Shown here piece after piece: positions 22,990 through 43,909 of a stretch of DNA of 64,000 nucleotides (the stretch's first letter is position 1; every line of letters begins with the position of its first letter). A program made the position numbers and the translations under genes. Where the stretch lies: NCBI GenBank assembly GCA_038999725.1, contig JAWBWS010000004.1, positions 717-64,716 of the forward strand, given 5' to 3'. A model generated the notes under the pieces. It ran no database searches, was not told the origin of the DNA, and saw only the letters and a program-made list of their open reading frames with translations. The DNA is from Candidatus Aenigmatarchaeota archaeon (GTDB lineage: Archaea > Aenigmatarchaeota > Aenigmatarchaeia > CG10238-14 > SCSR01).

Positions 22990-23352
22990 ATGAAGCCAAC
23001 AGGACCAACAAACCCTTACTTGAAGCAGCTTGTAGAAGAGTTGAAGCAGAAATCTAGAGAGTTAAAAGCTCCAATTTGGAAAGCTGTGGCCAAAAATCTA
23101 GAGAGGCCTAGAAGAAGAAAGGTCGAAGTAAATGTTTACAAGATAGAGAGAAATGCAAAAGAAAATGAAACTGTAATTGTGCCAGGAGTAGTTTTAGGTA
23201 GTGGTGAGATAAAAAAACCAGTTAGAGTGGCAGCTTGGAGATTCTCACCGCAGGCAGAAGAAAAGATAAGAAAAGCTGGTGGCACCGTGATGAAAATTGA
23301 AGATGTTTTGAAAGAAAATCCTAAAGGTAGTAATGTGAAAATTTTGGTGTGA
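22990..23352 (+). CDS. rpl18e: 50S ribosomal protein L18e
   Basis: MKPTGPTNPYLKQLVEELKQKSRE...PIWKAVAKNLERPRRRKVEVNV is the characteristic L18e N-terminus; 120 aa. Confidence 0.85.
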   Translation: MKPTGPTNPYLKQLVEELKQKSRELKAPIWKAVAKNLERPRRRKVEVNVYKIERNAKENETVIVPGVVLGSGEIKKPVRVAAWRFSPQAEEKIRKAGGTVMKIEDVLKENPKGSNVKILV

Positions 23353-23355
23353 GTC

Positions 23356-23778
23356 ATGATAATCTATGATGCAGAGAATCAGATTCTGGGAAGAATTTGC
23401 TCAAAGATAGCAAAAGATTTGCTGAATGGAGAGAAGGTTTTTGTTGTGAATTGTGAAAAAGCTGTTGTTTCTGGAAACCCAAAGCACATTCAAAAAAGAT
23501 ACTTGGAGAAGATTTGGCGAGGAGATGTGAAGCATGGCCCCTTCTTTCCGAGAACTCCAGATGGAATTTTCAGGAGAACAGTTCGGGGCATGTTGCCATG
23601 GCATAAAGCCAAAGGCAGGAAAGCTTACAAGAACCTAAAGGTTTTTATTGGTCTTCCGGAAGAATTTAAGGGCAAGGAGCTGAAGAAAGTGAAAGAAGCG
23701 GATGCCTCCAAGCTTAAGACTAAATTCATGAGTTTGGGAGAGATATCCTTAGCTATAGGTGCGAAAAAGAGATGGTAA
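23356..23778 (+). CDS. rpl13: 50S ribosomal protein L13
   Basis: MIIYDAENQILGRICSKIAKDLLNGEKVFVVNCEKAVVSG... is the archaeal L13 pattern; 140 aa, directly after L18e as in the conserved cluster. Confidence 0.9.
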   Translation: MIIYDAENQILGRICSKIAKDLLNGEKVFVVNCEKAVVSGNPKHIQKRYLEKIWRGDVKHGPFFPRTPDGIFRRTVRGMLPWHKAKGRKAYKNLKVFIGLPEEFKGKELKKVKEADASKLKTKFMSLGEISLAIGAKKRW

Positions 23779-23811
23779 AAAGTTTTTCTTAGTATTTCTC
23801 AAAATAGAATT

Positions 23812-24492
23812 ATGAAGCTACCCTTGATTCTAATAAATTTCAAGTGTTATGTTTCTGGTAGGAAAGCTTACAGGCTTGCAAAAATTTGTGAAGAGGTAGT
23901 TGAAAAATTTGATGTTAACATAGCAGTTGCTCCCCAGTTCACGGACATAGCGACAATAACAAAAAATTTGAAAATAAGTGTTTTCGCTCAACACATGGAT
24001 GCAATAGAGGAAGGAGCTTTCACAGGCCACATAAGCGGGAAAGCTTTGAAGGAAGCTAAGGTAAATGGGGTTATCCTAAACCATTCTGAGAAAAAAATGG
24101 GCTTGGATGAAATTGAGAAATGTGTGAAAATTGCAAAAAGGTTAAGACTAATCACAGTTTGTTGCGCTAGCAACTTAGAAGAAGGAAAAGAAATAGCAAA
24201 TTTTAAGCCAGATTTCTTGGCTTATGAAGATCCTTTTTTGATTGGGACAGGAAGAGCAATTTCTAGAGTCAAGCCGGATAGTGTGAGAGAATTTGTTGAG
24301 GTTATGGGGAAAATTGAACCTGAAGTAAAGGTTTTGTGTGGAGCTGGAATTTCTTCTGGTGAAGATGTAAAAAAAGCTTTAGAGCTTGGTACTGTAGGCG
24401 TGCTTGTTTCTTCAGCTGTGGTTAAATCAAAAAACCCTAGAAAAGTGTTGGAAGAATTTTGTAAAATTTATAGAATAGAAAATAAAATCTAA
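23812..24492 (+). CDS. tpiA: Triosephosphate isomerase (archaeal short type)
   Basis: ~225 aa with LILINFKCY, the catalytic region GVILNHSEKK (His–Ser–Glu), and a GAGISSGEDV phosphate-binding loop. Confidence 0.85.
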   Translation: MKLPLILINFKCYVSGRKAYRLAKICEEVVEKFDVNIAVAPQFTDIATITKNLKISVFAQHMDAIEEGAFTGHISGKALKEAKVNGVILNHSEKKMGLDEIEKCVKIAKRLRLITVCCASNLEEGKEIANFKPDFLAYEDPFLIGTGRAISRVKPDSVREFVEVMGKIEPEVKVLCGAGISSGEDVKKALELGTVGVLVSSAVVKSKNPRKVLEEFCKIYRIENKI

Positions 24493-24497
24493 TAATT

Positions 24498-25241
24498 ATG
24501 AAGCTGAAAGACAAAGTTGCTGTTGTAACTGGTGCTGGTCAGGGTATAGGAAGAGAAATTGCTCTAGCTTTTGCTAGGGAAGGGGCAAAAGTTGTTGTCA
24601 CAGATATAAGTGGAAAGGAAGAAGAAGTGGCAAGAGAAATAGAAAGTCTGGGAAGGGAGGCTTTAGCTCTAAAGCTTGATGTTTCCAGCAATGAAGATGC
24701 AAAAAAAATGGCAGAAGAAGTCTTGAAGAAATTTGGAAGAATTGACATTCTTGTGAACAATGCTGGAATATTCCCATTCAAGCCTTTTCTCGAGATGGAG
24801 GAAAAAGATTGGGAAAAGGTTTTAAATGTAAACTTGAAGGGGACTTACAATTGCACTAAAGCTGTTGTTGGTGCAATGATTCAGCAAAGGTATGGTAAGA
24901 TAATCAACATTTCTTCAATAGCTGGTTCTGTTGTTGGCTTTCAGCATCTTGTCCACTATTCGGCAAGCAAAGCTGGCATAGTAGGTTTCACAAGAGCTTT
25001 GGCTTTAGAGCTAGCTCCCTTTGGAATAAACGTGAATGCCATAGCTCCTGGTCCAATAGAGACTCCCGGAACAAAAGCTTTAGGTACAGAGATGTACGAG
25101 CAGATAAAGAAAGCTATACCAATAGGAAGATGGGGGAAACCTGAGGATATAGCAAACTTAGCAGTTTTTCTTGCAAGCGATGAATCAAGCCTCATAACAG
25201 GGCAGTGTATAGTTGCAGATGGTGGCTACACACTTCAGTGA
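24498..25241 (+). CDS. Short-chain dehydrogenase/reductase (FabG/glucose dehydrogenase-like)
   Basis: TGAGQGIGREIA Rossmann motif, NNAG, and catalytic S...YSASKAG tetrad. Confidence 0.85.
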   Translation: MKLKDKVAVVTGAGQGIGREIALAFAREGAKVVVTDISGKEEEVAREIESLGREALALKLDVSSNEDAKKMAEEVLKKFGRIDILVNNAGIFPFKPFLEMEEKDWEKVLNVNLKGTYNCTKAVVGAMIQQRYGKIINISSIAGSVVGFQHLVHYSASKAGIVGFTRALALELAPFGINVNAIAPGPIETPGTKALGTEMYEQIKKAIPIGRWGKPEDIANLAVFLASDESSLITGQCIVADGGYTLQ

Positions 25242-25737
25242 TATTTTATAAGAAACTTGCGCTGAAGGTATTCGTAAGCTGAAAGAACAGCTTTGGCTCC
25301 TTCGCCAGCCACAATTATCTACTTCCATTTCACATCAGTCACATCACCAGCAGCAAACAAACCAGCTATGTTGGTCTTACAGTTTTGGTCTATATCTATT
25401 TCTCCCTTTTTGCTTAGCTTGGCTTAAGACAGATCATGATTATAACACCTTCTACATTCAATTTCAAAACTTCTTTTGTTTCAAATTCTAGGGTTGTTGA
25501 AGATTTTAACAAAACTAAGTTTTTTCACACTATCCCTTAAGATTTCCTCACTCTTAGGTCTTGGACCAATATGTTTTTCTTTTTGTTGAGATCTTGAAAA
25601 GTTCCTTCTCTTTACTCACTTCTTTCAACATCTGTAGACAAACTGACTTGGCCACCAACATCGAGAGTTACAAGCAGTTATTCCAGCAAGGCTAGCACCA
25701 ACTATGATGCAATCATAAGGCACGATGCTTTTTTTCC
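25234..25737 (-). pseudogene. Decayed thioredoxin-reductase-like flavoprotein gene (pyridine nucleotide-disulfide oxidoreductase remnant)
   Basis: Minus-strand fragments in different frames: an N-terminal FAD fold (ME)KKSIVPYDCIIVGASLAGITACNS with a frameshift inside an A7 run at the start codon; DVGGQVSLSTDVE (GGQ motif); a C-terminal GEIDIDQNCKTNIAGLFAAGDVTDVKW; then IVAGEGAKAVLSAYEYLQ. Stops lie between the fragments and the total length is about half that of an intact trxB. Its 3' end overlaps the SDR gene stop. Confidence 0.6.
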
Positions 25738-25780: not shown

Positions 25781-26818
25781 ATGCCGATAAAAGTTGTTGT
25801 CAATGGTGTTGGCACAATTGGAAAAAGAGTTGCCCAAGCAATTAAGCTTCAGGATGATATGAAGCTTGTTGGCATATCAGATGTTGCACCCACAAGCTGG
25901 CTGAGAACTGTACTTGAACCAAAAGGCCCTTTGTACAAAACTGACCTCTACGCTTCCAATCAAGATGGAATGAAGGCTTTGACTGAAGGTGGAATGTATG
26001 TCAAAGGTTTTCTCGAAGACTTGCTAGCCTCTGGTGAAGTTGATGTTGTATGTGATTGCACACCTGCAAAGATTGGAGAGAAGAACAAACCCTTGTACCA
26101 AAAATACAAGGTGAAAATGGTCTTCCAAGGTGGGGAAAAACCTGAGGTTGCTGATTTAAGTTTTGTGGCAATAGCAAATTACGAGAAGGCTTTGAACAAA
26201 GATTCTGTTAGGGTTGTAAGTTGCAACACAACCTCACTTGTAAGGACAATCTTCACCATAGATCAAAAATTTGGAGTAGAAGAGGTTTTTGCTGCTTTGG
26301 TGAGAAGGGCAACAGACCCTTGGGATGAAAGGTCTGGCCCAATAAATGCAATTGTTCCCGAGACTCACGTTCCCTCCCATCAAGGTCCTGATTTACAAAC
26401 AGTGTTGCCTCATATAAACATAAAAACTATGGCAGTGAAAGTTCCTTCAACTTTGGCTCATTTACACATGGTCATAGGCAAAATCAAGAAGCAAGCAAGC
26501 AAGGAAGAGTTCAAAAAAGCTTTTGAAGAGGGTTCAAGGATGATATTGCTCAAGGCTTCTCACGGCTATACTGCAACTTCTGAAATAATAGAGAGATATA
26601 GAGATCTTTGCAGGCCAAGGTATGACATGTATGAAGTTGCGATTTGGGACGAATCTGTAACAGTAGAAAAAAATAGATTCTACTGGATGCACGCCGTACA
26701 TTCAGAAGCCATAGTTATCCCTGAAACTATAGATGCGATAAGAGCAATAACAGGAATTGAAACCGATAAGTTTAAGTCGATAGAAAAAACAAACAAGAGC
26801 TTGGGAATTGAGAAGTGA
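25781..26818 (+). CDS. gap: Glyceraldehyde-3-phosphate dehydrogenase (archaeal type)
   Basis: VVNGVGTIGKRVAQAI N-terminus, catalytic region VSCNTTSL, ~345 aa. Confidence 0.9.
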   Translation: MPIKVVVNGVGTIGKRVAQAIKLQDDMKLVGISDVAPTSWLRTVLEPKGPLYKTDLYASNQDGMKALTEGGMYVKGFLEDLLASGEVDVVCDCTPAKIGEKNKPLYQKYKVKMVFQGGEKPEVADLSFVAIANYEKALNKDSVRVVSCNTTSLVRTIFTIDQKFGVEEVFAALVRRATDPWDERSGPINAIVPETHVPSHQGPDLQTVLPHINIKTMAVKVPSTLAHLHMVIGKIKKQASKEEFKKAFEEGSRMILLKASHGYTATSEIIERYRDLCRPRYDMYEVAIWDESVTVEKNRFYWMHAVHSEAIVIPETIDAIRAITGIETDKFKSIEKTNKSLGIEK

Positions 26819-28058
26819 ACTCATGAAAGAATATTTTACCTTAGAAGATTTTGAGTTAGAGGGAAAAACTGTTCTGTTGAGAGCAGATTTGAATGCACCT
26901 TACAACAAAAAAGAGAAAAGAATAGAAGATTGTGATAGGATAAGGGAGCATGCAAAGACCATAAAATTTTTAATTGAGAAAGGAGCAAAAGTTGTTGTTA
27001 TTGCTCACCAAGGAAGGAAAGGGGAGGAGGATTTCACAAGCTTAGAGCAACATGCGAAACTTTTGAGCAAACATTTGGGAAGAGAAGTAAAATTTGTTAA
27101 TGATGTTATTGGAGAAAAAGCTTTAAATGAAATAAAGAATTTAAAAGAGGGTGAAGTCCTGCTTCTGGAGAATGTAAGGTTTTTGGAAGAGGAAACTCAA
27201 GAGAAAAGTCCTGAGGAACATTCTAAGAGCAAGCTTGTACAAACTTTAGCTCCACTTGCTGATCTTTTCGTTCAAGATGCTTTTTCTGCATCTCACAGGT
27301 CTCATGCTTCTATTGTTGGTTTTGCACCCCTTTTGCCAACAGTTGCTGGTAAAATCATGGAAAAAGAAATAAGCTCAGTGGAAAAGGTTTTGCAGCCTGA
27401 AGCAAATGTTTTCATCCTAGGGGGAGCAAAACCTGATGATTGCTTGAATATAATGGAGCACTTTCTTGAGAAAAAGCTGGAATGTGTGGAAAAAGTTTTG
27501 ACTTGTGGCACTGTTGGTGAAGTCTTCTTGATGGCAAGGGGCTACAAGTTAGGTAAAGCTACAGAAAAATTTTTTGAAGAAAAAGGATTTTTAGACTTAA
27601 TACCTCAGGCAAAAAGGCTTTTGGATGAACATCAAGAAAAAATAGAAATTCCGAAAGATGTTGCTGTGGAAGAGGGAGGGAGAAGAAAAGAGGTTGATAT
27701 AGAAGAACTACCTTCAAGTTCAATGATTCTTGACATAGGAAGGAAAACCATTGAAAATTACGTTAAAATCATAAATAGGGCTAAAACAATAGTTGTGAAA
27801 GGTCCAGCAGGAGTTTATGAAAAAGAGGGGTTTGAAGTTGGAACCAGGGAAATTCTTGAAGCTATAGCCAATTCAAAAGCTTTCAGTTTGATTGGTGGTG
27901 GAGATACCGGGCTAGCAATAGAAAAGCTTGGTATAGGGGGAGAAAAATTCTCTTACATAAGCTTGGGTGGCGGAGCCTTGATAACCTACCTTTCAGGAAA
28001 GCCTATGCCTGGAATAGAAGCCTTGAAACTATCTTACCAGAAATTTAAGGAAAAATAA
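26808..28058 (+). CDS. pgk: Phosphoglycerate kinase
   Basis: GKTVLLRADLNAP, VIAHQGR, and C-terminal GGGDTG...SLGGGA motifs. Confidence 0.9.
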   Translation: MRSELMKEYFTLEDFELEGKTVLLRADLNAPYNKKEKRIEDCDRIREHAKTIKFLIEKGAKVVVIAHQGRKGEEDFTSLEQHAKLLSKHLGREVKFVNDVIGEKALNEIKNLKEGEVLLLENVRFLEEETQEKSPEEHSKSKLVQTLAPLADLFVQDAFSASHRSHASIVGFAPLLPTVAGKIMEKEISSVEKVLQPEANVFILGGAKPDDCLNIMEHFLEKKLECVEKVLTCGTVGEVFLMARGYKLGKATEKFFEEKGFLDLIPQAKRLLDEHQEKIEIPKDVAVEEGGRRKEVDIEELPSSSMILDIGRKTIENYVKIINRAKTIVVKGPAGVYEKEGFEVGTREILEAIANSKAFSLIGGGDTGLAIEKLGIGGEKFSYISLGGGALITYLSGKPMPGIEALKLSYQKFKEK

Positions 28059-28083: not shown

Positions 28084-29028
28084 ATGTTTGATGTCGTTTG
28101 TATTGGCCATGTTCTTTATGATACAAGGTCTTTTGTTGAAGAATTCCCGAAGCCTGACAAAATGACATTCGTCAAGGGCACAATCACCCATAGCATAGGC
28201 GGTTCTGCCACAAATGTTGCTTGTAATCTTTCCAAGCTTGGGATGAAAACTGCCCTGATTGGGAAAATAGGATATGATGATCATGGCCAATACTTGCTCA
28301 GTCAATTGAAATTCTATGGCGTTGAATCAAAATACATTAAAATAACAACTGAAAAACCTACAGGAGTTTCGATGATAGTTATAGATAAAAGTGGAGAGCC
28401 TCTCTTATTTGAGATGGTTGGTGCAAATGAACCCCTACACAAAAGTGATATATCAAAGGAGGCTATAGAAAATTCTTCTCATGTACACATGAGTGGTACA
28501 ACCCTGGAAGCTTTGGCTCACGCTGCTAAACTTGCAAAAAAATTGAATAAAACTGTTTCTTTTGACCCAGGGAGAAGCAAATCTCAAGAAGGATTCAAGA
28601 AGCTTTACAAGATTTTAAAAAATGTAGACATTTTGATAACAACCAAAGTTGAAGCAATAAGGATTGTTGGCAACCCAAGTTACGACTTTCAAAAAGCCGT
28701 AGAATTTTTGAGGGAGAAAATGAAAGGAAAGATGATTATAGTTAAGAGTGGGAAGGATAAGACCCTTGTCTATTTAGATAAGAAGGCTTTTTCAGTTTCT
28801 ACCATTCCAGTAAAAGTTGTGGACACCATAGGAGCTGGTGATGCTTTTACTGCTGGCTTCTTGCATAAGTTTTTGCAAAAAGAAAAAATTGAAGAGTGTG
28901 TAAAGTTTGCAAATGCTTGTGGTGCTTTGAAAGTTACAAAAGAGGGGGCTGTTGGCTTGCCTTTCAAGGATGAAGTTTATGCTTTTTATAAAAAGGTTGA
29001 GAAAAAAATTGAAGTAGAGGGAATTTGA
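28084..29028 (+). CDS. PfkB-family carbohydrate kinase (candidate sugar-phosphate/6-phosphofructo- or tagatose-6-P kinase)
   Basis: Ribokinase-like fold with an N-terminal GG (IGGSATNVA) and a C-terminal anion hole DTIGAGDAFTAGF. Confidence 0.8.
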   Translation: MFDVVCIGHVLYDTRSFVEEFPKPDKMTFVKGTITHSIGGSATNVACNLSKLGMKTALIGKIGYDDHGQYLLSQLKFYGVESKYIKITTEKPTGVSMIVIDKSGEPLLFEMVGANEPLHKSDISKEAIENSSHVHMSGTTLEALAHAAKLAKKLNKTVSFDPGRSKSQEGFKKLYKILKNVDILITTKVEAIRIVGNPSYDFQKAVEFLREKMKGKMIIVKSGKDKTLVYLDKKAFSVSTIPVKVVDTIGAGDAFTAGFLHKFLQKEKIEECVKFANACGALKVTKEGAVGLPFKDEVYAFYKKVEKKIEVEGI

Positions 29029-29871
29029 TTGAGTTTGGAGAAAATTTCTTCCAAAGGTTTTTTCCACATCGTCGCTTTAGATCACAGACAATCTCTCAAA
29101 AAAATGATAAACCCAAGAAATCCTGAGTCTGTATCAAGAAAAATTTTGGAACAAGTGAAGCTTAAACTCTCTAAAGCTTTTTCTCCCCAAGCTTCTGGAA
29201 TTTTGCTAGACCCTATATACGGGATGACAGCTATTAAAGCGATAAGAGATAAGTGTGGCTTGATAGTCTCTCTTGAAGAGTCTGGCTACAAAGAAACTAG
29301 GGAAGGAAGAACAACATCTTTAATCAAAAATTTTGGGCCAGAAAAAGTTAAGAGGATTGGTGGGGATGCCGCCAAGCTTTTGATATATTTCAACCCAAAG
29401 GCAAAAAAAGCCAAACAGCAAAAAAAGCTTGTAGAATATGTTGCTACAAGATGTAAAGAAATAGAATTACCATTTGTTTGTGAGTTTCTCATTTACCCAT
29501 ACAAGGAAAGGGACTTTGAAAGGGAGAGGAGCAAACTGATAATTCAATCTGTAAAAGAGATTTCAAGGCTTGGCATAGATTTACTTAAAACAGAATTTCC
29601 GGGCAAGCTTGATGAAAAAGCAGAAGTTAACTGTAAAAAACTTGCAAAAGCTAGCAAAGTCCCTTGGGTCTTGTTGAGCAAAGGAATAAGCTTTGAAGAA
29701 TTCAAGGAACAATTGAAATTTTCCATGAAATTTGGATGCTCAGGTTTTGCTGTTGGTAGAGCATTGTGGCAAGAGTATTTTCAAGTAAAAAATAAAGAAG
29801 AATTTTTGAGAGAAGTTTGTTTGAAGAGATTGAAAGAATTGAAAGAAATAGTAAGCGAAAAATTCATTTGA
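29029..29871 (+). CDS. Class I aldolase of the LacD/DeoC-like family (tagatose/fructose-bisphosphate aldolase-like)
   Basis: GFFHIVALDHRQSLKKMI resembles the LacD AIDQRGSLRKML substrate-binding N-terminus. TIM-barrel length; alternative TTG start. Confidence 0.55.
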   Translation: MSLEKISSKGFFHIVALDHRQSLKKMINPRNPESVSRKILEQVKLKLSKAFSPQASGILLDPIYGMTAIKAIRDKCGLIVSLEESGYKETREGRTTSLIKNFGPEKVKRIGGDAAKLLIYFNPKAKKAKQQKKLVEYVATRCKEIELPFVCEFLIYPYKERDFERERSKLIIQSVKEISRLGIDLLKTEFPGKLDEKAEVNCKKLAKASKVPWVLLSKGISFEEFKEQLKFSMKFGCSGFAVGRALWQEYFQVKNKEEFLREVCLKRLKELKEIVSEKFI

Positions 29872-31111
29872 TTTTATCTTGAGAAAACAGGGAAGTGAAT
29901 ATCTTAGTCTTCAAATCGGCCACAATTCTCATGAAATTTGCAAAACTTTCCTCTGGGCTTGAGAAGCAGCTGAAATATTTGTGGACATCACCATCAGCCC
30001 ACATCTTGTTACACATGTAGTAATAATGATCGCTTGTTAGCAAGTACTTCCAAACCTTTTTCATCTCCCCATCGTTTACTTCCCTCAAAAGCTTTCCCAA
30101 ATTCTTTACTTCTTCAAAACAAGTTTGTTGCATCTTATTGCCTAGCCAAGCAGAAACATCCCTCTCCATGTCGGCCCAGGAGACTGTTGAAAACTCAAAA
30201 ACATCTATTTCACCTATGGGCTTAATTTTTTCCACAATTTCACTTGGTGTTGCAAACTCCAAATTCTCATATTTCAAAACTTCATAGGGCAAAGCTTTCA
30301 AGAACCAGAAAATTCCAGATTCTGCCCATTGATGCTCACCGAAAGTTTCAAAATCCATGAAAATATTTATGCATTCACCCGGAGTTGCATTAAGCCAGGC
30401 TGCAAATTTATCAGCGGTTAAAGGCCACTGGTCCCAATTCATTGCTGAAAATCTATAACCAATGTCGTCGCTAAGCCTATAATTCCTTAAGAGAATTCTT
30501 ATCCTTTTATCCCAATCTCTATCATCCGGAAAGCAAAACTTCCTCACATAAATGTAATTTGGTGATCTCCATCCAAGAATTCTTTCAGCACCTTCTGTGA
30601 AAATTGCCTTGAATCCCAAATCTTCAACTATTCTACCAATAACATTGTTATATATCATTTCAGTATTCACGAAGACCCTCGGCTTAACACCGAATAAATC
30701 TTTCATTGTTTGGGAGTGAAGATTTACCTCTTCCACAAATTCTTCTTTTGTATCAAAAAGGCTTGACAAAGAATGATGATAAGTTTCACCAATTATTTCA
30801 ACCTTCTTTGTTTTCACAAGTTGTTTGAAATTCTCGAGAACATCTTTGCCATATTTTTCACAAAGTTCGAGAAAAACCCCACTGATTGCAAAATTCACCT
30901 TGAACTGCTTCTTTTCATGCTTAAACTTATCTATCAGCTCAAGCAAGATGTTTGTTGTTGGTAGATAGCACCTATCTCTGACTTTTTCAAAGATCATTTT
31001 ATTCAAGCCTGAATTGAAATAGCTATTCATATCTTTAGAAATTCCATCTGTTTGAAAATTGGCCAATCTTATGGGCTGATGTACTTGGAAGCTTAAGGTA
31101 ATCAGAACCAT
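29864..31111 (-). CDS. Glycoside hydrolase family 57 protein (alpha-glucan acting)
   Basis: N-terminal LSFQVHQPIR (HQP signature of GH57); ~415 aa. Confidence 0.7.
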   Translation of the reverse strand: MVLITLSFQVHQPIRLANFQTDGISKDMNSYFNSGLNKMIFEKVRDRCYLPTTNILLELIDKFKHEKKQFKVNFAISGVFLELCEKYGKDVLENFKQLVKTKKVEIIGETYHHSLSSLFDTKEEFVEEVNLHSQTMKDLFGVKPRVFVNTEMIYNNVIGRIVEDLGFKAIFTEGAERILGWRSPNYIYVRKFCFPDDRDWDKRIRILLRNYRLSDDIGYRFSAMNWDQWPLTADKFAAWLNATPGECINIFMDFETFGEHQWAESGIFWFLKALPYEVLKYENLEFATPSEIVEKIKPIGEIDVFEFSTVSWADMERDVSAWLGNKMQQTCFEEVKNLGKLLREVNDGEMKKVWKYLLTSDHYYYMCNKMWADGDVHKYFSCFSSPEESFANFMRIVADLKTKIFTSLFSQDKIK

Positions 31112-31159
31112 AGTTATAATTATTTCTTATACCCCTTATAAATTTAACATTAGGGCAAC

Positions 31160-36405: not shown

Positions 36406-36627
36406 ATGAAGTGTTGGTTTTGTGAAAAGGAGGCTCGGGGCGTTTGCATAGTTTGCGGGAGAGCAGTTTGTCATGAGCATGCAGACAAACTCGATCAATT
36501 CACCCATGCAAAATCAGATACTTGCAGCGGTTTCGCAAGTTATGAAAAGGGATTTAATGTGTTGAAATGTAGAGAATGTAAGCTTGAGTGGGAGAGCTGG
36601 GAGCAGGGGAAGAGAGTAATCAGGTGA
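36406..36627 (+). CDS. Small Cys-rich zinc-ribbon protein
   Basis: CWFCEKEARGVCIVCGRAVCHEH...CRECK gives four CxxC pairs in 73 aa. Confidence 0.5.
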   Translation: MKCWFCEKEARGVCIVCGRAVCHEHADKLDQFTHAKSDTCSGFASYEKGFNVLKCRECKLEWESWEQGKRVIR

Positions 36628-37543
36628 TCTTGAGTAGTTTTTCAATTTCTTCCTTTTTTACAAATCTCTCTCTTCCAATTCTTGTTGTGTATAGAGCTCC
36701 ACACGCGTTTGCAAATTCAGCACACTTTTTCAGACTTAGATTTAGCAAAAAAGCTTTGATGAAGCCTGCATCAAAAGCGTCTCCCGCTCCCGTTGTTTGG
36801 ATAGGATCAACTTTAAACCCTTTCACATGAATTACCTCCCCACCTTCTCCAACATAGCTTCCATTTTCCCCATGTTTGAGGGCAACAATCTTTGGCCCAA
36901 ATTCAAGGAGCCTCTCAACAATCCTTTCTGGATCTTCAATCTTTGTTATAGCCTTACCCTCTTCATAATCGGGAAAGAAAAAATCTGTTGTTTTCAAGAT
37001 TTTAAGCAAGTCCCTTAGTCTTTTGTTTGTCCAACCTTTTGGATCCCAGTTTGGGTCTAAGCTAGTTTTCATTCCCTTCCTTCTAGCATAATTGAAAATC
37101 TCATAAACATCTTTTCTCAAACTATCGAGCAGATTAAAACCACCCACATGTAAAATTTTACCTTCTATCTCTTTCAAAGAAAAATCTTTTTTGGATAAAT
37201 TGGAATTGCTTCCTCTGAAGGATACCATAGCCCTTTTCATGTCTTCAAAAGTTAGAGAAATTGTTATTCCTGCTGTTTCTCCTTTAACTCTCCTTATTTT
37301 GGTCTTTACCCCAGCTTTTTGAATTTCTTCTATTAAAAAATCAGAAATGAAATCAAAGCCTAAGCGCCCTATGAATTTTGTTTTAAGACCGAGAGAAGAA
37401 CAGAAAGAAGCAAATATTGCAGAAGATCCACCAAGCTGAACTATAAATTTCGGCAAAATTGTTTGCCTATCTTTTTCAGGATAGTTTTTCAATGGCGAAG
37501 AAATTAAGTCAAGATTTATGTCACCTACCACACTTACATCCAT
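36620..37543 (-). CDS. PfkB-family carbohydrate kinase (second paralog)
   Basis: Ribokinase fold with IQTTGAGDAFDAGFI anion hole and an N-terminal GG motif. Confidence 0.8.
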   Translation of the reverse strand: MDVSVVGDINLDLISSPLKNYPEKDRQTILPKFIVQLGGSSAIFASFCSSLGLKTKFIGRLGFDFISDFLIEEIQKAGVKTKIRRVKGETAGITISLTFEDMKRAMVSFRGSNSNLSKKDFSLKEIEGKILHVGGFNLLDSLRKDVYEIFNYARRKGMKTSLDPNWDPKGWTNKRLRDLLKILKTTDFFFPDYEEGKAITKIEDPERIVERLLEFGPKIVALKHGENGSYVGEGGEVIHVKGFKVDPIQTTGAGDAFDAGFIKAFLLNLSLKKCAEFANACGALYTTRIGRERFVKKEEIEKLLKIT

Positions 37544-37579
37544 ATAATTTAATAGGGAATCAAAACTAAATTTAGTTTT

Positions 37580-39082
37580 ATGAATGAAGTTTTAAAGCCG
37601 AATGTTTTAATGGTTTCAGCTGAGCTTAAAAGTTTTAAATCAAGAGCTGGCGGTCTTGGTCCTGCTGTTGAAGAGCTTGCCTATTCTTTGGCAAAGCTAG
37701 GTTGCAAGGTTAGTGTGGTTAGCTTGCTATACAAGTACGGAAGAGACGAGAAAGATGAAATTAAAGAAATAGATTACAGTGATATAAAGCTTGAAGATTT
37801 TGCAGTTGTAAGCTTCTGGATTGCAAATGAAAAAGTAAGTGCCCAAATTAAAAAAGTTGAAAAAAATGGTGTAACATTTTATTTTTTAGAAAATGAAAAA
37901 TTTGCAAATCTTTTGTACGAAGGTGATGGTCTTCAAAGAGCAATTTTTTTGGCTAGAGGAACTTTAGAGTTGGCTAAGCTTTTGGACAAAGTTGATATAA
38001 TCCACTTGAATGATGCTCACACAGGCTTGATACCACTTTTCTTTAAAGCAGAATACAAATACCATAGCGATACAAAACTCAAAAACTTAAAATTTGCTTA
38101 CACTATTCACAATGCAGGAAAAGCTTACCAACAGATATTTGAAGGAGAAAGATTTTGGGAGCTTAGCATAGGAGAAGAATGGAGAGAAAAGGTTATATGG
38201 GAAGGTAAAATCAATCTAACTTATACTGCCACAATTCTTTCTGATATTTGTAACACAGTTAGCCCAGATTACGCGAAAACCTTAGAGGAAAATGGTGAAG
38301 GCTTGAGAGAAATTTTCAGGATAAAAAAAATTTTTGGAATTACCAATGGTATAGATATTGATTATTGGAGAATGCCTGAACTTAAAAGTGTGAAATCTGT
38401 AAAGGATTTGAAAGAAAAAAAGAAGATGGCAAAGATCGAGCTCTTGAAAGAAATAGAAAAGATAAAGGGGGACAAGCTTTCCGAAGAAAGGCTAACGATA
38501 GTAATTCCTAGGAGATTTGCAGATCAAAAGGGTTTTGAAATCTTCTTACCTCACTCTGGAATAATAGTGAAGAGTAGGGAAGAAGGTGGTTTGGGTGCAC
38601 AAATCATCATCCTTGGAAGAGCCGCCCTTGGAGATCCTGTTGGAAGGAAGTGGATAGAAATGTGTAAAAGGCTTGATGAAGAATTGGGGAACTACTTTGT
38701 TTTCATTCAAGGGTTTAATGAAGAACTTGCAAAGAAAATGTATTGGGGAGGAGATTTGCTCCTCTATCCTTCTCTACCAGGAAAAGAACCCTGTGGTACA
38801 GGCTACATGATGGCTGCAGTTAATGGTACTGTAACCTTGGGAACAGATACAGGAGGGATGAGTGATAAAATAATCGACTTCAAGAATGGATTTAAAATCA
38901 AAAAAGAGGAATATGGGTGGGAGGCCTTTTTAGAAAAATTAAAAATCATCTCAAACCTTTTCTATGAGGAAAGAGAGAAGTGGGATGAAATAATGTGGAA
39001 TGCCTTCAAAATGAAAGTTGACATGGATGAAACAGCAAAAGAATACCTAACAAAATTATACTTTCCAATCCTAAAAAAATAA
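37580..39082 (+). CDS. glgA: Glycogen/starch synthase-like glycosyltransferase (GlgA-like, GT5-type N-terminus)
   Basis: LMVSAELKSFKSRAGGLGPAVEELAYSLAKLGCKVSVV matches the K-x-GG-L ADP-glucose-binding N-terminus of GlgA; 500 aa. Confidence 0.7.
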   Translation: MNEVLKPNVLMVSAELKSFKSRAGGLGPAVEELAYSLAKLGCKVSVVSLLYKYGRDEKDEIKEIDYSDIKLEDFAVVSFWIANEKVSAQIKKVEKNGVTFYFLENEKFANLLYEGDGLQRAIFLARGTLELAKLLDKVDIIHLNDAHTGLIPLFFKAEYKYHSDTKLKNLKFAYTIHNAGKAYQQIFEGERFWELSIGEEWREKVIWEGKINLTYTATILSDICNTVSPDYAKTLEENGEGLREIFRIKKIFGITNGIDIDYWRMPELKSVKSVKDLKEKKKMAKIELLKEIEKIKGDKLSEERLTIVIPRRFADQKGFEIFLPHSGIIVKSREEGGLGAQIIILGRAALGDPVGRKWIEMCKRLDEELGNYFVFIQGFNEELAKKMYWGGDLLLYPSLPGKEPCGTGYMMAAVNGTVTLGTDTGGMSDKIIDFKNGFKIKKEEYGWEAFLEKLKIISNLFYEEREKWDEIMWNAFKMKVDMDETAKEYLTKLYFPILKK

Positions 39083-39083
39083 T

Positions 39084-40304
39084 ATGAAGATTGCTTTCAT
39101 CTCTTGGGAGTATACTCCTTTCTTGGTAGGTGGTCTTGGGATTTATTCTTTGAACATGACAAGAAAGTTTGTTGAGAAGGGAAATGAAGTTTCAGTTTTC
39201 ACCATGAATCCAAAAAATTCAAAGGAGTTTGAGGAAAAAAATGGGATAAAAATTTACAGGTTCTCTTTTCTTGACAGCTCAAAGACAATTTCAATTTTTG
39301 CAAATAGTGATATTTTAAGTTGGGGGAAAGGTCTAAAGCTTTTTTCTGACATTTTTAATTACAATTTCCTCTTGACAAAAAAGTTTACTGAGCTACAAAA
39401 AAGGGAAAAGTTTGATATCATAGCCGTTCATGATTGGATTTCTGCTTTTTCTGGTTTGATGCTCAAGCAAACAAAAGTTCCAATAGTTTTTCACTTACAT
39501 TCTGTTGAAGAAATTAGAAATTTCCCAGGATCGGAGACTTTGAAAAGATTGGAGAGAGAAATGGCAAAAGAAGCTAATAAAGTGATAACGGTCTCCGAAT
39601 CCATGAGAGATTTTGTTGGATCAATAGGTTATGATAAAGAAAAAATTTCTGTATGCTGGAATGGAACAGATCCTGAAGCTTTTGATCCCAAAAAAGTTGA
39701 TCTTGAACTTGTGGAAAAATTGAAAGAAAGATATAAAATAAGAGAAGAGAAAATTGTTTTTTTCATTGGCAGGCTTGTGTGGTTCAAGGGAATTTACAAT
39801 TTGGTTAAAGCCATGAGTTTTGTTTTAAAAGAATTTCCAAACACGAAGCTTATTATGGTGGGGATTGGTGAAAGTGAAAATCTTATGCAAGAGGTAAAAG
39901 CCTTAGGTTTAGAAAAAAATATCGTTTTGGTAAATAAGTGGTTAAGTGATGAAGAAAAGCTTGCCCACTTTTATTTGGCTGATGTTTGTGTTTTCCCAAG
40001 CATAAACGAGCCCTTTGGTATAGTTGCTTCTGAAGCTATGGCAATGGAAAAGCCTGTTGTTGTTGGTGCTTCCGGTGTTTCTGGCTTTAAAGAACAGGTT
40101 GTTCCTTCTGGTGAAAAAAGGACAGGAGTTCATGTGGATGGAAATAGCCCTCAAGATGTAGCCTGGGGAATAAAAGAGGTTTTGGGGAATTTAGAAGAAG
40201 CTAAGAAATGGGGGAAAAATGGGAGGGAGCTTGTGCTTGAAAAATTCAACTTTGAGTTAACTGCAACTAAGACATTATCAATTTATGAAAGCTTGCTGAA
40301 ATAA
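39084..40304 (+). CDS. GT4-family glycosyltransferase (paralog of 35229–36401)
   Basis: MKIAFISWEYTPFLVGGLGIYSLNMTRKFVEKGNEVSVFT and a C-terminal PSINEPFGIVASEAMAM. Confidence 0.75.
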   Translation: MKIAFISWEYTPFLVGGLGIYSLNMTRKFVEKGNEVSVFTMNPKNSKEFEEKNGIKIYRFSFLDSSKTISIFANSDILSWGKGLKLFSDIFNYNFLLTKKFTELQKREKFDIIAVHDWISAFSGLMLKQTKVPIVFHLHSVEEIRNFPGSETLKRLEREMAKEANKVITVSESMRDFVGSIGYDKEKISVCWNGTDPEAFDPKKVDLELVEKLKERYKIREEKIVFFIGRLVWFKGIYNLVKAMSFVLKEFPNTKLIMVGIGESENLMQEVKALGLEKNIVLVNKWLSDEEKLAHFYLADVCVFPSINEPFGIVASEAMAMEKPVVVGASGVSGFKEQVVPSGEKRTGVHVDGNSPQDVAWGIKEVLGNLEEAKKWGKNGRELVLEKFNFELTATKTLSIYESLLK

Positions 40305-40308: not shown

Positions 40309-41118
40309 TTGATGGTAAGGATAATAGGAATAGTTTCTGGTAAAGGGGGTGTGGGTAAAACAACAGTCACAGCTAATCTTGCTCTTGCTTTGGCTAAACT
40401 TGGAAAAGAGGTTAGGGTTATTGATTGTAACATCACAACTTCCCATTTAGGCTTTCTCTTTGATTTTCATTTTTACCCTAAGAGCTTGAATGATGTGTTA
40501 GCTGGAAGAACTTCAATAGAGGAAGTCACTTTCTTCAAAGAGGGAATAGGGATAATTCCCGCAAGCCTAAAAGTTGAAGATTTGGCTGGAGTTAATATTG
40601 AGAATCTGAAAGAGGTGATCAAAGGGATAGAAGCTGATTTTGTTTTACTCGATTCTGCCCCTGGTCTTGGTAAAGAAGCTTTAAGCGTTTTAACAGCAGC
40701 ACGAGAAGTTCTTTTTGTCACTGTTCCTTATTTAAACTCTGTTATTGATGTTGTTAAATGTGAAAAGGTGGCAAAAAGTCTTGGCTTAGCTCCTTTGGGA
40801 ATAGTTTTGAACATGGTTAAGGGCTATCCTCATGAGATGAGCAAAAAAGAAATAGAAGAAATCACAAATCTTCCAACCTTAGCAGAAATTCCATATGACG
40901 AGAACGTTAGCATAGCACTATCTTTTGGTAAGTCCGTCCTCCATTTCAACCCATACTCACCAGCAAGCTTAGAATTTAAAAAGCTTGCTGGCAAAATTTC
41001 AGGGATTGAAGTCGAGGAGAAAAAACCCAATGTTTTTTCTAGGCTTGTGTTGAACTTAAGGAACAAGCTTTTGCTAAGGAGACCCCTCAAGCCTGAGCTT
41101 CTGATAGAAAAGATTTAA
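40309..41118 (+). CDS. MinD/ParA-family P-loop ATPase
   Basis: Deviant Walker A GIVSGKGGVGKTT; ~270 aa. Confidence 0.85.
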   Translation: MMVRIIGIVSGKGGVGKTTVTANLALALAKLGKEVRVIDCNITTSHLGFLFDFHFYPKSLNDVLAGRTSIEEVTFFKEGIGIIPASLKVEDLAGVNIENLKEVIKGIEADFVLLDSAPGLGKEALSVLTAAREVLFVTVPYLNSVIDVVKCEKVAKSLGLAPLGIVLNMVKGYPHEMSKKEIEEITNLPTLAEIPYDENVSIALSFGKSVLHFNPYSPASLEFKKLAGKISGIEVEEKKPNVFSRLVLNLRNKLLLRRPLKPELLIEKI

Positions 41119-41150
41119 AAATGGAAAAGACAAATTGAGATTCTGAGAAG

Positions 41151-41579
41151 ATGAAAAGAGAAAAGGCAAAAGTTGTGTTCACCGTGGGAAAAAGAAAGAG
41201 GGCAATAGCTAGAGCAAAAGTTGTCCCTGGTACAGGAAGAGTTATAATTAACTCTAAACCTTTGGAAATTTGGGGGAATGAATACATGAGGCTTCGTGTC
41301 AAAGAACCTTTGCTTTTATCAGAAGATTTGGGTGGAAAGCTTGATTTTTATGTGAATGTTAAAGGTGGTGGTACAACAGGTCAGACAGAGGCTATAAGAA
41401 CAGCTATTGCAAGAGGTTTGGTAGAGTTTTCAAAAGACAAGAAGCTTGAAGAAAAGCTCTTGAATTATGATAGGAATCTGCTCGTCTTTGACTTCAGAAG
41501 AACAGAGCCTCACCATGGTAGCGGAAGGGGAGCAAGCAAGCGTGGCTCAAGACGTCATAAACAGAGGAGTAAGAGATAA
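41151..41579 (+). CDS. rps9: 30S ribosomal protein S9
   Basis: GGGTTGQTEAIRTAIARGL and a C-terminal RSKR tail. Confidence 0.9.
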   Translation: MKREKAKVVFTVGKRKRAIARAKVVPGTGRVIINSKPLEIWGNEYMRLRVKEPLLLSEDLGGKLDFYVNVKGGGTTGQTEAIRTAIARGLVEFSKDKKLEEKLLNYDRNLLVFDFRRTEPHHGSGRGASKRGSRRHKQRSKR

Positions 41580-41582: not shown

Positions 41583-41855
41583 TTAGCTTTTAAGATAGAG
41601 TTCTAGCAATCTTTTTATGTCAGATATTGGAAGTTTTATTTCAGATTTGGGTAAGAAGAAAGTTAAGTATTTGTTCTCATCTATTTTTGTCAGGTTATCG
41701 ATTGGGATTTTTTCTATTTTATAAATCAGTTTTAGCTCATCTTTGGTCAGAATATGTAAATCAACAAAAAGGTAAGAAGATTTGCTAGATGGGAAAATCG
41801 TGACACAAAATTTCTCATACTCTAAATAAGGTAAAATGGCATCTCTCTTTAACAT
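41583..41855 (-). CDS. Hypothetical small protein
   Basis: 90-aa ORF on the opposite strand between rps9 and the PGM/PMM gene. No motifs; low-complexity K/L-rich. Confidence 0.3.
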   Translation of the reverse strand: MLKRDAILPYLEYEKFCVTIFPSSKSSYLFVDLHILTKDELKLIYKIEKIPIDNLTKIDENKYLTFFLPKSEIKLPISDIKRLLELYLKS

Positions 41856-41997
41856 TTTCTCAATTTTCCCTTAAACTTTAATCTATTTAATTCTTTCTAT
41901 TTCTCATGAAAACTGTAAAAAAGTAATATATTAATGTGCAAATTTTTCCTTTTAAACTATCAATCTTTTAGTTAAAATTCCAAATAATTTATTTTAG

Positions 41998-43374
41998 ATG
42001 GGATCTAAAAACAGTGAAAACATCTTCAGGCCAAATGACATCAGAGGTATATATGGTAGAGATTTAACGGAAGATGTAGCAGAAAAAATTGGCAAAGCTT
42101 TTGGAACTCTTTTGGGAGAGGGGAAAGTTGTGGCTGTGGGGAGAGATGTAAGACTAAGCAGTAAGAGCTTAAGAGATTCTCTAGTCAAGGGTTTAATTTC
42201 TACAGGCTGCAATGTTGTAGATATCGGTGTAGTAACCACACCCGCCTTTTACTTTTCCCTTTTTTTCTACAAGTTCGATGGTGGTATAATGATAACAGCT
42301 TCACACAATCCTCCAGAATGGAATGGTTTTCACATATACAGAGGAATAAACTCTTTGATTGTCGAAGAAGAAATCAACAAACTGAAAGAAATTATAGAGA
42401 AAGAAGAATTCAGAAAAGCCAAAAAGAAAGGTAAGGTTAGAAAGCATTATATTCTAAAAGATTACATAAGCTTCCTTTCTTCAAAAGTAAAGATTAAGAA
42501 AAAATTGAAGGTAGTTGTGGATTGCTCGAATGGTTGTGCAGCTTTGGTTATACCAAAGCTTCTCAAGAAGCTTGACCAAGAAGTTGTTGTGCTTAATGCT
42601 AAAATGGATGGTAAATTTCCTGCTCATGGACCAGATGTAAAGGAAGAAAACTTGAAAGAATTGAAAAAAATGGTTAAAGAAATTAAAGCAGATTTAGGGG
42701 TTTGTTATGATGGGGATGCTGATAGAGCAGCTTTTGTTGATGAAAGGGGTAGAGTTATACAAGGTGATAAGGCAGCTTTGATTATTTTGGAAGATGTGTT
42801 CAGGAGAAAGAAATCTCCAAGAATTTTAGATGATGTGAGTTGCTCTTCTGCTATAGAAGAATATATAAGAAGTAAAGGTGGTATCCTAAAAACAAGCAGG
42901 AGGGGTCACGCTTTTCTTCAACAAATAATGAGAAAAGAAAAAATTGATTTTGGTTTTGAAAAAAGTTCTCATTTTTATTTTTCAGAGCTAAGAGGTTTTG
43001 ACGACGCTGCTCTAGCAACTCTGAAAGTAGCCGAAGTCCTCTCAAGAAGCAAAAGAAGTTTTTCTCAAATCGTTAATTCTATTAACTGGCCTCCAAGCAA
43101 AGAAGAAACTTTGTATTGTGATGATGAAATTAAGCTTAAGGTCATTCAAAATGTGAAAAAAGAAATTCGCATACTTGGATTTAAAACTATTGAGCTAGAT
43201 GGGGTAAAAGCCTTCATGCAAGAAGGATGGTTTTTAGTAAGAGCTTCGATAACAGAGCCTGCCATAAGAATTACTGTTGAGGCAAAAGAAGAAAAAGCAT
43301 TAAAGGAAATTTTAAGCTTCACAAAGAAGCTTGTGAAGAAAGAAATAAATATATGTTCAGCTAAGGTAAAATGA
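41998..43374 (+). CDS. Phosphoglucomutase/phosphomannomutase (archaeal PGM/PMM family)
   Basis: Active-site Ser loop [12 protein letters not shown], metal-binding DGDADR, and sugar-binding GFEKSSH motifs. Confidence 0.85.
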
Positions 43375-43384
43375 AGGGAAGTTT

Positions 43385-43579
43385 ATGATAATCCCTGTTA
43401 GGTGCTTTACCTGTGGCAAGCCTATTGGACACTTATGGGAAGAATATAAAAAAAGGGTAGGGATGGGAGAGGATTCAGGAAAAGTATTGGATAGCCTAGG
43501 GTTAAAGCGTTACTGCTGCAGGCAGGTATTTTTGGGTACAGTAGAGCTACTTAGAGAGGTGGAGGAATTCAAACCATAA
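43385..43579 (+). CDS. rpoN: DNA-directed RNA polymerase subunit N (Rpb10)
   Basis: [15 protein letters not shown]...YCCRQ zinc bundle; 64 aa. Confidence 0.9.
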
Positions 43580-43630
43580 TATTTTTAACACTAAATTCAA
43601 AAAATATTTACATACTGGTGGTAAAAAATT

Positions 43631-43909
43631 TTGAAAGATGATGGGATGATATGGCCTGCTGACAGGTTGACGAGATTCGAGTTTGCAAGGATACTTGGCG
43701 CCAGAGCTTTGCAAATTTCTCTAGGTGCACCAATTTTGGTTAAAACTGATGCAACTGATCCAATTGAAATAGCAAAAATAGAATTTAAAGAAAAAATGAT
43801 TCCAATAACTGTGAAAAGAAGGTTGCCCAATGGGGAAGAAATGGTAATAAACATCAAAAAAGCAATGGAAAACTGGATTGCGGAGCATGGGGAAGAAGAT
43901 TTAATTTAG
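43631..43909 (+). CDS. rpoK: DNA-directed RNA polymerase subunit K (Rpb6)
   Basis: [25 protein letters not shown] is the conserved Rpb6/omega core. Confidence 0.85.

Follow-up and report, generated by a model that had tools for sequence, protein, structure and literature searches.

A carbohydrate-metabolism supercluster likely relocated into the L13-S9 junction of a ribosomal protein gene cluster in hot-spring Aenigmatarchaeota

Here, we describe a split ribosomal protein cluster in a 64,000-nucleotide stretch of DNA (the window) from a hot-spring Candidatus Aenigmatarchaeota (DPANN) archaeon (contig JAWBWS010000004.1, assembly GCA_038999725.1), in which the genes for ribosomal proteins L18e, L13, and S9 and RNA polymerase subunits RpoN and RpoK are collinear on one strand, as judged from Pfam matches and coordinates, and L13 is separated from S9 by a block (the island) of carbohydrate-metabolism genes. 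We provide evidence that the split of L13 and S9 is a real, inherited rearrangement, and that the island is likely a native supercluster relocated into the L13|S9 junction, not foreign DNA, because in outgroup genomes of the same phylum the same core gene order lies away from an intact ribosomal cluster.

The L13 stop and the S9 start lie 17,372 bp apart and S9 and RpoN 1,805 bp apart (open reading frame [ORF] coordinates), so that L13-S9 and S9-RpoN contiguity is lost in the window, while L18e-L13 and RpoN-RpoK are still adjacent. Annotation of the window ORFs by Pfam and NCBIfam profile scans bore out what an earlier note on this DNA had read from the sequence: the genes and coordinates that it named for the L18e-to-RpoK span match gene for gene, some 17 kb of carbon-metabolism genes do lie between L13 and S9, a PGM/PMM gene (41998-43374) sits between S9 and RpoN, and neither enolase nor S2, reported there as missing after RpoK, has a family member anywhere in the 64 kb. 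The same scans detected no RpoD, S11, S4, or S13 in the window, and S13-S4-S11-RpoD before L18e and enolase-S2 after RpoK are also absent from the other Aenigmatarchaeota loci examined, outgroups included. G+C content is about 35% over the whole window, without a step at the island borders. The DUF2180 ORF, the orphan ORF hyp90, the pseudogene between SDR and GAPDH, and a second PGM-family gene (55080-56438) were absent from the earlier gene list. The features of the span, in window coordinates, are:

22944..22958, plus strand: element resembling a transcription factor B recognition element (BRE) and TATA box, AAAAAAGTTTAAAAA, upstream of L18e, about -46..-32 from its ATG and followed by a Shine-Dalgarno-like GAGTGGTGA; putative promoter
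22990..23352, plus strand: rpl18e, ribosomal protein L18e (PF17135/PF00828)
23356..23778, plus strand: rpl13, ribosomal protein L13 (PF00572), with the ancestral 3' end ...AGATGGTAA retained (3' end compared with outgroups)
23779..23811, plus strand: left junction, 33 bp, a T5 run right behind the L13 stop and, ahead of the TIM ATG, conserved AAAATAGAATT
23812..24492, plus strand: triose-phosphate isomerase (TIM), archaeal type (PF00121; NF003302, 271 bits, above cut-off)
24498..25241, plus strand: short-chain dehydrogenase/reductase (SDR), FabG/glucose-1-dehydrogenase-like (PF13561/PF00106; NCBIfam subfamily matches)
25238..25729, minus strand: decayed thioredoxin-reductase-like (Pyr_redox_2) pseudogene (tblastn fragments in several frames against the 314-aa ortholog at locus L104)
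25781..26818, plus strand: type II (archaeal, phosphorylating) GAPDH (NF003251, 445 bits, and TIGR01546, 387 bits, both above cut-off)
26808..28058, plus strand: phosphoglycerate kinase, PGK (PF00162, 405 bits; the public gene call, L001, begins at 26823)
28084..29028, plus strand: PfkB-family sugar(-phosphate) kinase 1 (PfkB1), candidate ATP-dependent phosphofructokinase (PFK) (PF00294; ribokinase-like, under all NCBIfam equivalog cut-offs; PDB matches to ribokinases/MJ0406)
29029..29871, plus strand: LacD/YihT-type class I aldolase, with no spacer (0 bp) after the kinase gene (PF01791; NF009498, 248 bits, cut-off 184; PDB 8tnf, 5hjl, 7ag1)
29864..31111, minus strand: GH57 glycoside hydrolase a (GH57a; PF03065, 278 bits)
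31160..33130, plus strand: GDE_C amylo-alpha-1,6-glucosidase-like protein (GDE), glycogen debranching/glucoamylase-like (PF06202; homologs across Aenigmatarchaeota)
33127..33885, minus strand: cupin-type glucose-6-phosphate isomerase, cPGI (PF06560)
33914..35146, plus strand: GH57 glycoside hydrolase b (GH57b), divergent (PF03065, 58 bits)
35229..36401, plus strand: GT4 glycosyltransferase a (GT4a; PF00534/PF13439; best NCBIfam match glgA_Coryne, under cut-off)
36406..36627, plus strand: DUF2180 small protein (PF09947; adjoins GT4a in all relatives by synteny)
36620..37543, minus strand: PfkB-family sugar kinase 2 (PfkB2; PF00294)
37580..39082, plus strand: GT5 GlgA-like glycogen/starch synthase (PF08323; TIGR02095, 205 bits, under the cut-off of 328)
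39084..40304, plus strand: GT4 glycosyltransferase b (GT4b; PF00534/PF13439)
40309..41118, plus strand: archaeal MinD/ParA-type ATPase (TIGR01969, 220 bits, above cut-off; also the gene after GT4b in outgroups L025-L027 and L106)
41107..41121, plus strand: BRE/TATA-like element GAAAAGATTTAAAAA before S9, -44..-30 from its ATG and overlapping the MinD stop; putative promoter
41151..41579, plus strand: rps9, ribosomal protein S9 (PF00380), whose start codon is new (MKREK instead of the ancestral MVKKEK) by N-terminus and junction comparison
41583..41855, minus strand: orphan 90-aa ORF (hyp90), species-specific, with other genes at the same position in relatives
41998..43374, plus strand: PGM/PMM-family phosphohexomutase, PGM1 (PF02878-80/PF00408; TIGR03990, 402 bits, just under the cut-off of 439)
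43385..43579, plus strand: rpoN, RNA polymerase subunit N/Rpb10 (PF01194)
43631..43909, plus strand: rpoK, RNA polymerase subunit K/Rpb6 (PF01192)

The ancestral state is preserved in four distant Aenigmatarchaeota, in which L13 and S9 overlap by 7 nt (AGATGGTAA / ATGGTAAAG...) and L13 is 78% (L105), 76% (L021), 76% (L023), and 75% (L018) identical to that of the window. Outgroup and island-bearing (ingroup) loci have flanks in common, with NifU-IscS-HTH, Cyclophilin-like or AdoMet_dc-BpsA_C upstream, and ArgRS and deoxyhypusine synthase downstream. Decisive for the direction of change is the 879,840-bp contig Ga0453288_0014, which carries L18e-L13-S9-NUDIX-RpoN-RpoK at 688.7-709.1 kb and, 517 kb from this ribosomal cluster, a carbohydrate supercluster at 149.9-171.9 kb (GAPDH-PGK-...-TIM(-)-FBPase-GH57(-)-GDE-DUF2582(-)-cPGI(-)-GH57-GT4-DUF2180-...-GH15(-)-PfkB(-)-PGM(-)-GlgA-GT4), whose core gene order is that of the window. 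The same core order is found in L024, L026, L027, and L106, where it ends in MinD and is followed by unrelated genes, showing that the block ended ancestrally in MinD on its right side. In its compact ancestral form this phylum-wide supercluster comprises GAPDH-PGK-TIM, GH57, GDE, cupin PGI, GH57, GT4, DUF2180, PfkB, GlgA-like, GT4, and MinD, to which FBPase, GH15, a PGM, and the pair of PfkB kinase and aldolase are variable extras. Genes flanking it in L022, L026, and L106 include TrxR, FNT, NADK/GDH, RTC, and AdoMet_dc-BpsA_C. A scan of metagenomes with the GT4b alignment yielded 80 loci, none of them island-bearing, and is informative on outgroup cluster structure only. The description of the ribosomal cluster as broken open thus held in the synteny comparison, in which outgroups keep the L13/S9 overlap with the same flanks and have the block elsewhere.

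A variant supercluster at L106 (Ga0453288_0283, 1-11265) has its PfkB1-aldolase pair after MinD, a cupin PGI of only 142 aa, and an in-cluster PGM on the minus strand that is split into 282 and 106 aa and is likely a pseudogene. AdoMet_dc-BpsA_C lies 3 kb downstream, and the same two genes are found just upstream of L18e in L016, L018, and L023, which hints that the ribosomal and carbohydrate clusters may once have been neighbors.

As the source is a short-read metagenome-assembled genome (MAG), and the cluster is unbroken in distant relatives, whose carbohydrate genes lie elsewhere, a chimera of assembly or binning that joined a ribosomal contig to a carbohydrate-metabolism contig had to be considered, and was what the earlier note had given as grounds for its own refutation. 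However, L18e-L13-TIM and MinD-S9-hyp90-PGM were recovered at 100% amino acid identity in the separate Logan assemblies of three runs (SRR21619490, SRR21619491, and SRR21619492), and among GTDB species, each scanned through one genome, six further Aenigmatarchaeota species from several springs and years have MinD followed by S9 (S9 88-91% identical; order ...GDE-cPGI-GH57b-GT4a-DUF2180-PfkB2-GlgA-GT4b-MinD-S9-...-RpoN-RpoK). L13 homologs that are 81-95% identical are all followed by TIM-SDR-..., namely those in GCA_038999985.1, GCA_039000425.1, ENA ERZ27245617, JGI 3300022544, and Logan SRR24425229, and a single 87-kb contig (overlap of L017 and L010) spans the whole arrangement. In total, both junctions recur in at least seven other species across springs, years, and pipelines (NCBI, ENA, JGI, Logan), with junction sequences that have diverged yet are homologous, and the derived start codon of S9 suits its new context. 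Because independent assemblies and related species reproduce the junctions, the split is not an artifact; the chimera is already refuted by this recurrence, even though distant relatives keep the intact cluster, and its remaining probability is negligible.

Comparison of the junctions points to the position and the number of events. The ingroup S9 starts ATG-AAG-AAA-GAA (MKKEK) versus ATG-GTA-AAG-AAA-GAG (MVKKEK) in the outgroup; because the end of L13 is kept and the N terminus of S9 is changed, the break is placed within or right after the 7-nt overlap, with a new ATG recruited for S9. Among ingroup species the left junction is homologous (TAA..TTTTTCTT..CAAAATAGAATTATG, in L017, L104, and L016; shortened to the 3-bp TAAATTATG in L019/L020), as is the right junction (GRAAAGATTTAAAAA..AAATTGAGATTCTGAGAAnATG), and when island proteins are compared (about 2,050 aa in all), the ingroup members are much closer among themselves than any is to the outgroup. 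Identities within the ingroup versus to the outgroup are 62-73% versus 45-48% for GDE and 92-95% versus 76-78% for GAPDH. At L016 (10417-10812), an orphan 131-aa ORF between L13 and TIM begins exactly at the ancestral S9 start (ATGGTAG, overlapping the L13 stop) and is unrelated to S9. The orphan ORFs hyp129, hyp90, and this L016-ORF131 had no homologs in the fetched loci except in copies of the same genome.

The likely history is a single relocation of a native block, about 17 kb long, in the subclade whose L13 is at least about 81% identical to that of the window. Its target was the 7-nt overlap of rpl13 and rps9, at a time when a PGM-family gene already lay between rps9 and rpoN. The L13 end AGATGGTAA was kept, whereas S9 lost its second codon and gained both a new ATG and a BRE/TATA-like element that is invariant and similar to the putative promoter of L18e. 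The relocation itself may have been neutral or only mildly advantageous.

The earlier note suggested testing the island for deviating composition, and this test gave no deviation that would mark foreign DNA: the codon-usage divergence of the island (Jensen-Shannon divergence of 0.0076) ranked 10/61 among contiguous gene blocks, inside their range, and G+C at third codon positions was 0.324 vs 0.303. A genomic island acquired horizontally from another lineage and inserted in the ribosomal cluster could explain the slightly higher overall G+C content of the island (0.370 vs 0.350), the presence of a tRNA gene 0.7 kb upstream of L18e, and the LacD-type aldolase, whose next-closest homologs (37-42% identity) are in Chloroflexi/Dehalococcoidales-like bacteria; this gene family may be of ancient bacterial origin. 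Yet the tRNA lies away from the island border, Pfam scans of the island ORFs gave no integrase or transposase, a repeat search found none linking the borders at 23.78 kb and 41.12 kb, and the same block with the same core order occupies a nonribosomal locus in other Aenigmatarchaeota. The nearest homologs of GDE and of the aldolase are also within the phylum. In a database-wide search that covered 2 of the 16 island genes (GDE and aldolase), homologs at 45-100% identity were from Aenigmatarchaeota or from unlabeled contigs of the same kind, with Aenigmatarchaeota accounting for GDE from 100% down to 45%. Horizontal acquisition of the island is thereby largely refuted, and we consider it highly improbable.

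The tRNA gene near L18e (22108-22311, plus strand) was missed by ARAGORN and Rfam and has extra sequence near the anticodon and, in the T-loop, an insertion about 100 nt long that is delimited by the inverted repeat TTGAGTGAGGA/TCCTCACTCAA; when the insertion is removed in silico, ARAGORN calls a nominal Glu-TTC tRNA with a further intron.

Returning to the relocated native block, we next consider how S9 could be expressed once separated from L13. The element upstream of L18e is kept as GAAAAAGCTTAAAA in L016, L017, L019, L104, and L105 (pattern match at 22950-22958). Within GRAAAGATTTAAAAA, GAAAGATTTAAAAA at -44..-30 of S9 is invariant in six species where nearby codons vary; it contains three MinD codons and the MinD stop, whose synonymous sites never vary, it is missing from the MinD ends of the outgroups compared, and it resembles the L18e element GAAAAAGCTTAAAA at the same distance from the start. 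A TTTAAAAA box is the promoter-like box of the regions 41080-41160 (S9) and 22930-22995 (L18e). A conserved TATA-like AATAAATATATG lies upstream of RpoN and persists in L007, where the PGM gene is gone. S9 thus appears to have a promoter of its own, and we infer independent promoters for L18e, S9, and RpoN. The argument is built on invariance across species because the window has no excess of the motif RTTTAAAAA (14 occurrences against 17 expected).

The proposal that the pathway lies inside a translation/transcription operon found no support, as the span is broken by genes on the minus strand, a pseudogene, and the promoter-like elements of S9 and RpoN. Four genes of the span are on the opposite strand (GH57a, cPGI, and PfkB2 in the island, plus hyp90). 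In the 539-bp gap between SDR and GAPDH, tblastn (E=1.7e-35) matched residues 182-314 of the thioredoxin-reductase-like protein of L104; the gene is still whole (314 aa) in L104, further decayed than here in L017, and has almost vanished from L019 and L016. In outgroups L022, L026, and L027 it adjoins the supercluster. Because of the four minus-strand genes, the pseudogene, and the elements before S9 and RpoN, L18e to RpoK would not form one operon and would comprise at least six plus-strand units. These would be (i) L18e-L13(-TIM-SDR), (ii) GAPDH-PGK-kinase-aldolase, (iii) GDE, (iv) GH57b-GT4a-DUF2180, (v) GlgA-GT4b-MinD(-S9), (vi) S9 from its own promoter, and (vii) PGM(-RpoN-RpoK) with an internal RpoN promoter, while the four opposite-strand genes would be monocistronic. 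The divergent pairs GH57a/GDE, cPGI/GH57b, and PfkB2/GlgA are separated by only 48, 28, and 36 bp (31112-31159, 33886-33913, and 37544-37579), and each start codon has a TATA-like box at a distance of about 24-31 nt, an arrangement that suggests overlapping bidirectional promoters and leaderless or short-leader mRNAs. Scans of 22.5-42.4 kb for sigma-70 promoters and intrinsic terminators gave counts equal to those of shuffled sequence, these being bacterial models that are irrelevant to archaea.

Gaps short enough for read-through are found at only three junctions: L13 to TIM-SDR (3-33 bp), MinD to S9 (about 32-40 bp), and PGM to RpoN (10-43 bp). At the first, where the gap is just 3 bp in L019, although the L13 stop of the window has a T5 run behind it, it is plausible that TIM-SDR rides on the L18e-L13 transcript; at the other two, read-through is possible. 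It could be argued that the block was retained adaptively, since cotranscription of TIM-SDR with L18e-L13, of S9 with glgA-GT4b-minD, and of RpoN-RpoK with PGM would tie carbohydrate storage and glycolysis to the growth machinery. The three junctions do stay tight over substantial divergence, sugar-phosphate genes have been recruited repeatedly (PGM in L021, L105, and the ingroup, and an alpha-glucan-phosphorylase-like gene in L019, L020, and L104), and the canonical archaeal cluster was already associated with enolase. However, the conserved promoter-like elements of S9 and RpoN and the T5 run after the L13 stop speak against such coupling, the three opposite-strand genes and the pseudogene in the island make a single L13-to-S9 mRNA impossible, and the slot between S9 and RpoN also holds unrelated genes, suggesting a permissive insertion site over selection for sugar genes. 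Coupling may still operate at the three short junctions but is disfavored as a global explanation, and we regard adaptive retention through it as unlikely. That the relocation was selected to wire a ribosomal protein and two RNA polymerase subunits to storage-carbohydrate gene expression seems more doubtful still; if true, it would mean a hard-wired coupling of growth and storage, suited to an episymbiont with feast-and-famine host sugars, and the capture of PGM, the glucan phosphorylase-like gene, and the supercluster around one cluster would be convergent, not accidental.

Several points weigh against the single relocation of a native block with subsequent repair of S9. The vacated ancestral site of the block was not located in the ingroup genomes, neither an integrase nor repeats that could indicate a mechanism were found at the island, and all genomes compared are MAGs or metagenome contigs. 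In a neighbor-joining bootstrap of L18e and L13 (260 aa), monophyly of the ingroup received 39% versus 54% for a competing split; because this alignment is too short to resolve the clade, the claim of a single origin rests on junction homology and the distances of island proteins. For the promoters, the calls are sequence inferences in a genome of 35% G+C, the tested motif shows the lack of enrichment given above, and the invariant S9 element consists in part of C-terminal codons of MinD. Similarity between the upstream regions of S9 and L18e (23/48 identity, best partner among 60 genes) is only in the top 2.7% of gene pairs, and we do not claim that the S9 element arose by copying the L18e promoter.

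The position of PGM1 next to S9 is a separate event that is older than the insertion of the block, because L021 and L105 carry S9-PGM-RpoN without the island. Similarity to PGM1 of the window falls off as follows:

S9-adjacent PGMs of L021 and L105: 44-52% identity to PGM1
PGM(-) inside the outgroup superclusters: 37-42% identity to PGM1
55080-56438, second PGM-family gene of the window (PGM2): 33% identity to PGM1

The slot between S9 and RpoN is variable in the phylum, holding NUDIX or HD and NUDIX genes in L023 and L018, a LAGLIDADG-like ORF and a transporter in L007-L010 (L007 having lost its PGM), and the orphan hyp90 besides PGM1 in the window. In the relatives concerned, the S9-PGM gap contains a 307-aa LAGLIDADG ORF (truncated to 214 aa in L007) and a 400-aa membrane transporter on the minus strand. 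Free-standing LAGLIDADG-type ORFs occur at L009 (10500-12622), L007 (2562-4331), and L021 (5725-6861), the one in L021 lying between NifU and IscS; it is possible that such ORFs drive local insertions and deletions at these sites.

A role for PGM1 as GlmM was considered; PGM2, which lies beside GlmU-like and GlmS genes, is the better GlmM candidate, although both proteins score just under the TIGR03990 cut-off. PGM2 belongs to a second sugar-nucleotide neighborhood at 51701-58125 (GlmS at 51701-53476, GNAT, an HTH/S-layer-like gene on the minus strand, PGM2, and a HAD hydrolase), which probably encodes a UDP-GlcNAc route and in which PGM2 overlaps a GlmU-like NTP-transferase/hexapeptide gene (56423-57439). 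Elsewhere downstream of the cluster, RpoK is directly followed (43901-49771) by ORFs of 501 aa (-), 763 aa (-), and 670 aa (+) without a Pfam match, which are about 43-70% identical in relatives and include a divergent pair with a 46-bp palindromic-looking promoter region. A 106-nt tRNA called by Rfam and missed by ARAGORN, probably intron-containing, lies at 60470-60575 (+), and the window breaks off 166 nt into an archaeal 16S rRNA gene (5' part, 63835-64000, +).

The functional assignments of cupin PGI, TIM, type II GAPDH, PGK, and MinD are secure from their profile matches, and those of the GH57, GDE, GT4, and GT5 proteins are secure at the family level only. A glucan synthase (GT5/GT4), GH57 proteins, and a GDE-type enzyme are present (PF08323, PF00534, PF03065, PF06202), but the GlgA-like and gde_arch scores fall under NCBIfam cut-offs, which limits membership in a glycogen cluster to the family level, and PDB sequence searches with both GH57 proteins gave no match. 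The block would encode both synthesis and breakdown of glycogen, together with the route from hexose phosphate via triose phosphate to 3-phosphoglycerate. From their context beside TIM, GAPDH, and PGK, PfkB1 and the LacD-type aldolase are predicted to act as phosphofructokinase and fructose-bisphosphate aldolase; the pair resembles LacC/LacD, YihV/YihT, or IolC/DUF2090 pairs. The aldolase also occurs in other Aenigmatarchaeota (after MinD in L106), beyond which its closest relatives are the bacterial proteins mentioned above. Profile scans found neither a glucan phosphorylase nor an NDP-glucose pyrophosphorylase in the island, and the nearest NTP_transferase in the window is the GlmU-like gene beside PGM2.

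An alpha-glucan-phosphorylase-like gene of 531-536 aa (TIGR02094, 128 bits, under cut-off) lies directly upstream of Cyclophilin-like-L18e in L019 (763-2358, -), L020 (110-1708, -), and L104 (2172-3782, -), the basal island-bearing species, which thus have glycogen genes on both sides of the ribosomal genes; the gene gives no match in the window.

L13 and S9 are among the most conserved gene pairs of prokaryotes, and the canonical archaeal cluster is extended by rpoK-eno-S2. Outgroup Aenigmatarchaeota are like the bacterial rplM-rpsI operon in keeping this universal pair, with a 7-nt overlap that makes translational coupling likely, whereas ingroup members have the pair uncoupled, with a new start codon and a promoter-like element at S9. 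The window shares its five genes, with their order and orientation, with the canonical L18e/L13 ("alpha-operon-like") cluster, in which enolase is a precedent for a metabolic neighbor, and differs from it in the distances of 17.4 kb between L13 and S9 and 1.8 kb between S9 and RpoN and in lacking RpoD/S11/S4/S13 before and enolase/S2 after the five genes. The canonical archaeal core has been given as S13-S4-S11-rpoD-L18e-L13-S9-rpoN (PMC10833476), and conserved strings listing RpoK, S2, and enolase have been reported (PMC5817203). Split or dispersed ribosomal protein clusters are known from Asgard archaea and the DPANN Micrarchaeum ARMAN-2, where, as in the window, lineage-specific break-up of conserved clusters accompanies a fluid gene order; in those cases S13-S4-S11 lies apart from rpoD-L18e-L13-S9 and L13-S9 is intact (PMC10833476). 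In contrast, the break in the window can be placed to the nucleotide inside the L13-S9 pair, and what fills it is a single native block; relatives still show the ancestral locus of that block. Sets of glycogen and Embden-Meyerhof-Parnas genes have been described in the Nanohaloarchaeota member "Ca. Nanohalobium constans" (PMC7443923) and in Nanopusillus acidilobi (PMC4935971), and most Aenigmarchaeota MAGs were found to be without phosphofructokinase in a reconstruction that does not discuss gene order (PMC8407114). The window clade resembles these reduced-genome archaea in keeping both the metabolism of glycogen and a glycolytic trunk that would supply ATP by fermentation, and differs in having a PfkB kinase and LacD-type aldolase beside TIM, GAPDH, and PGK, all set inside a ribosomal cluster. 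Our literature search found no paper mentioning a block in this L13/S9 position.

The finding is a clade-defining relocation of a native carbohydrate supercluster with compensatory changes in S9, an event of a kind already known, and the relocation alone reveals no new mechanism. It defines a carbohydrate supercluster that is phylum-wide, provides in the PfkB kinase and LacD-type aldolase candidates for the "missing PFK" step of Aenigmarchaeota, and makes the L13|S9 split, a rare genomic change, available as a marker for the clade. It also represents a natural experiment in which a translationally coupled ribosomal gene has survived being cut from its promoter, and in which the apparent "repair" of S9, through a new start codon and a promoter-like element, is still visible.

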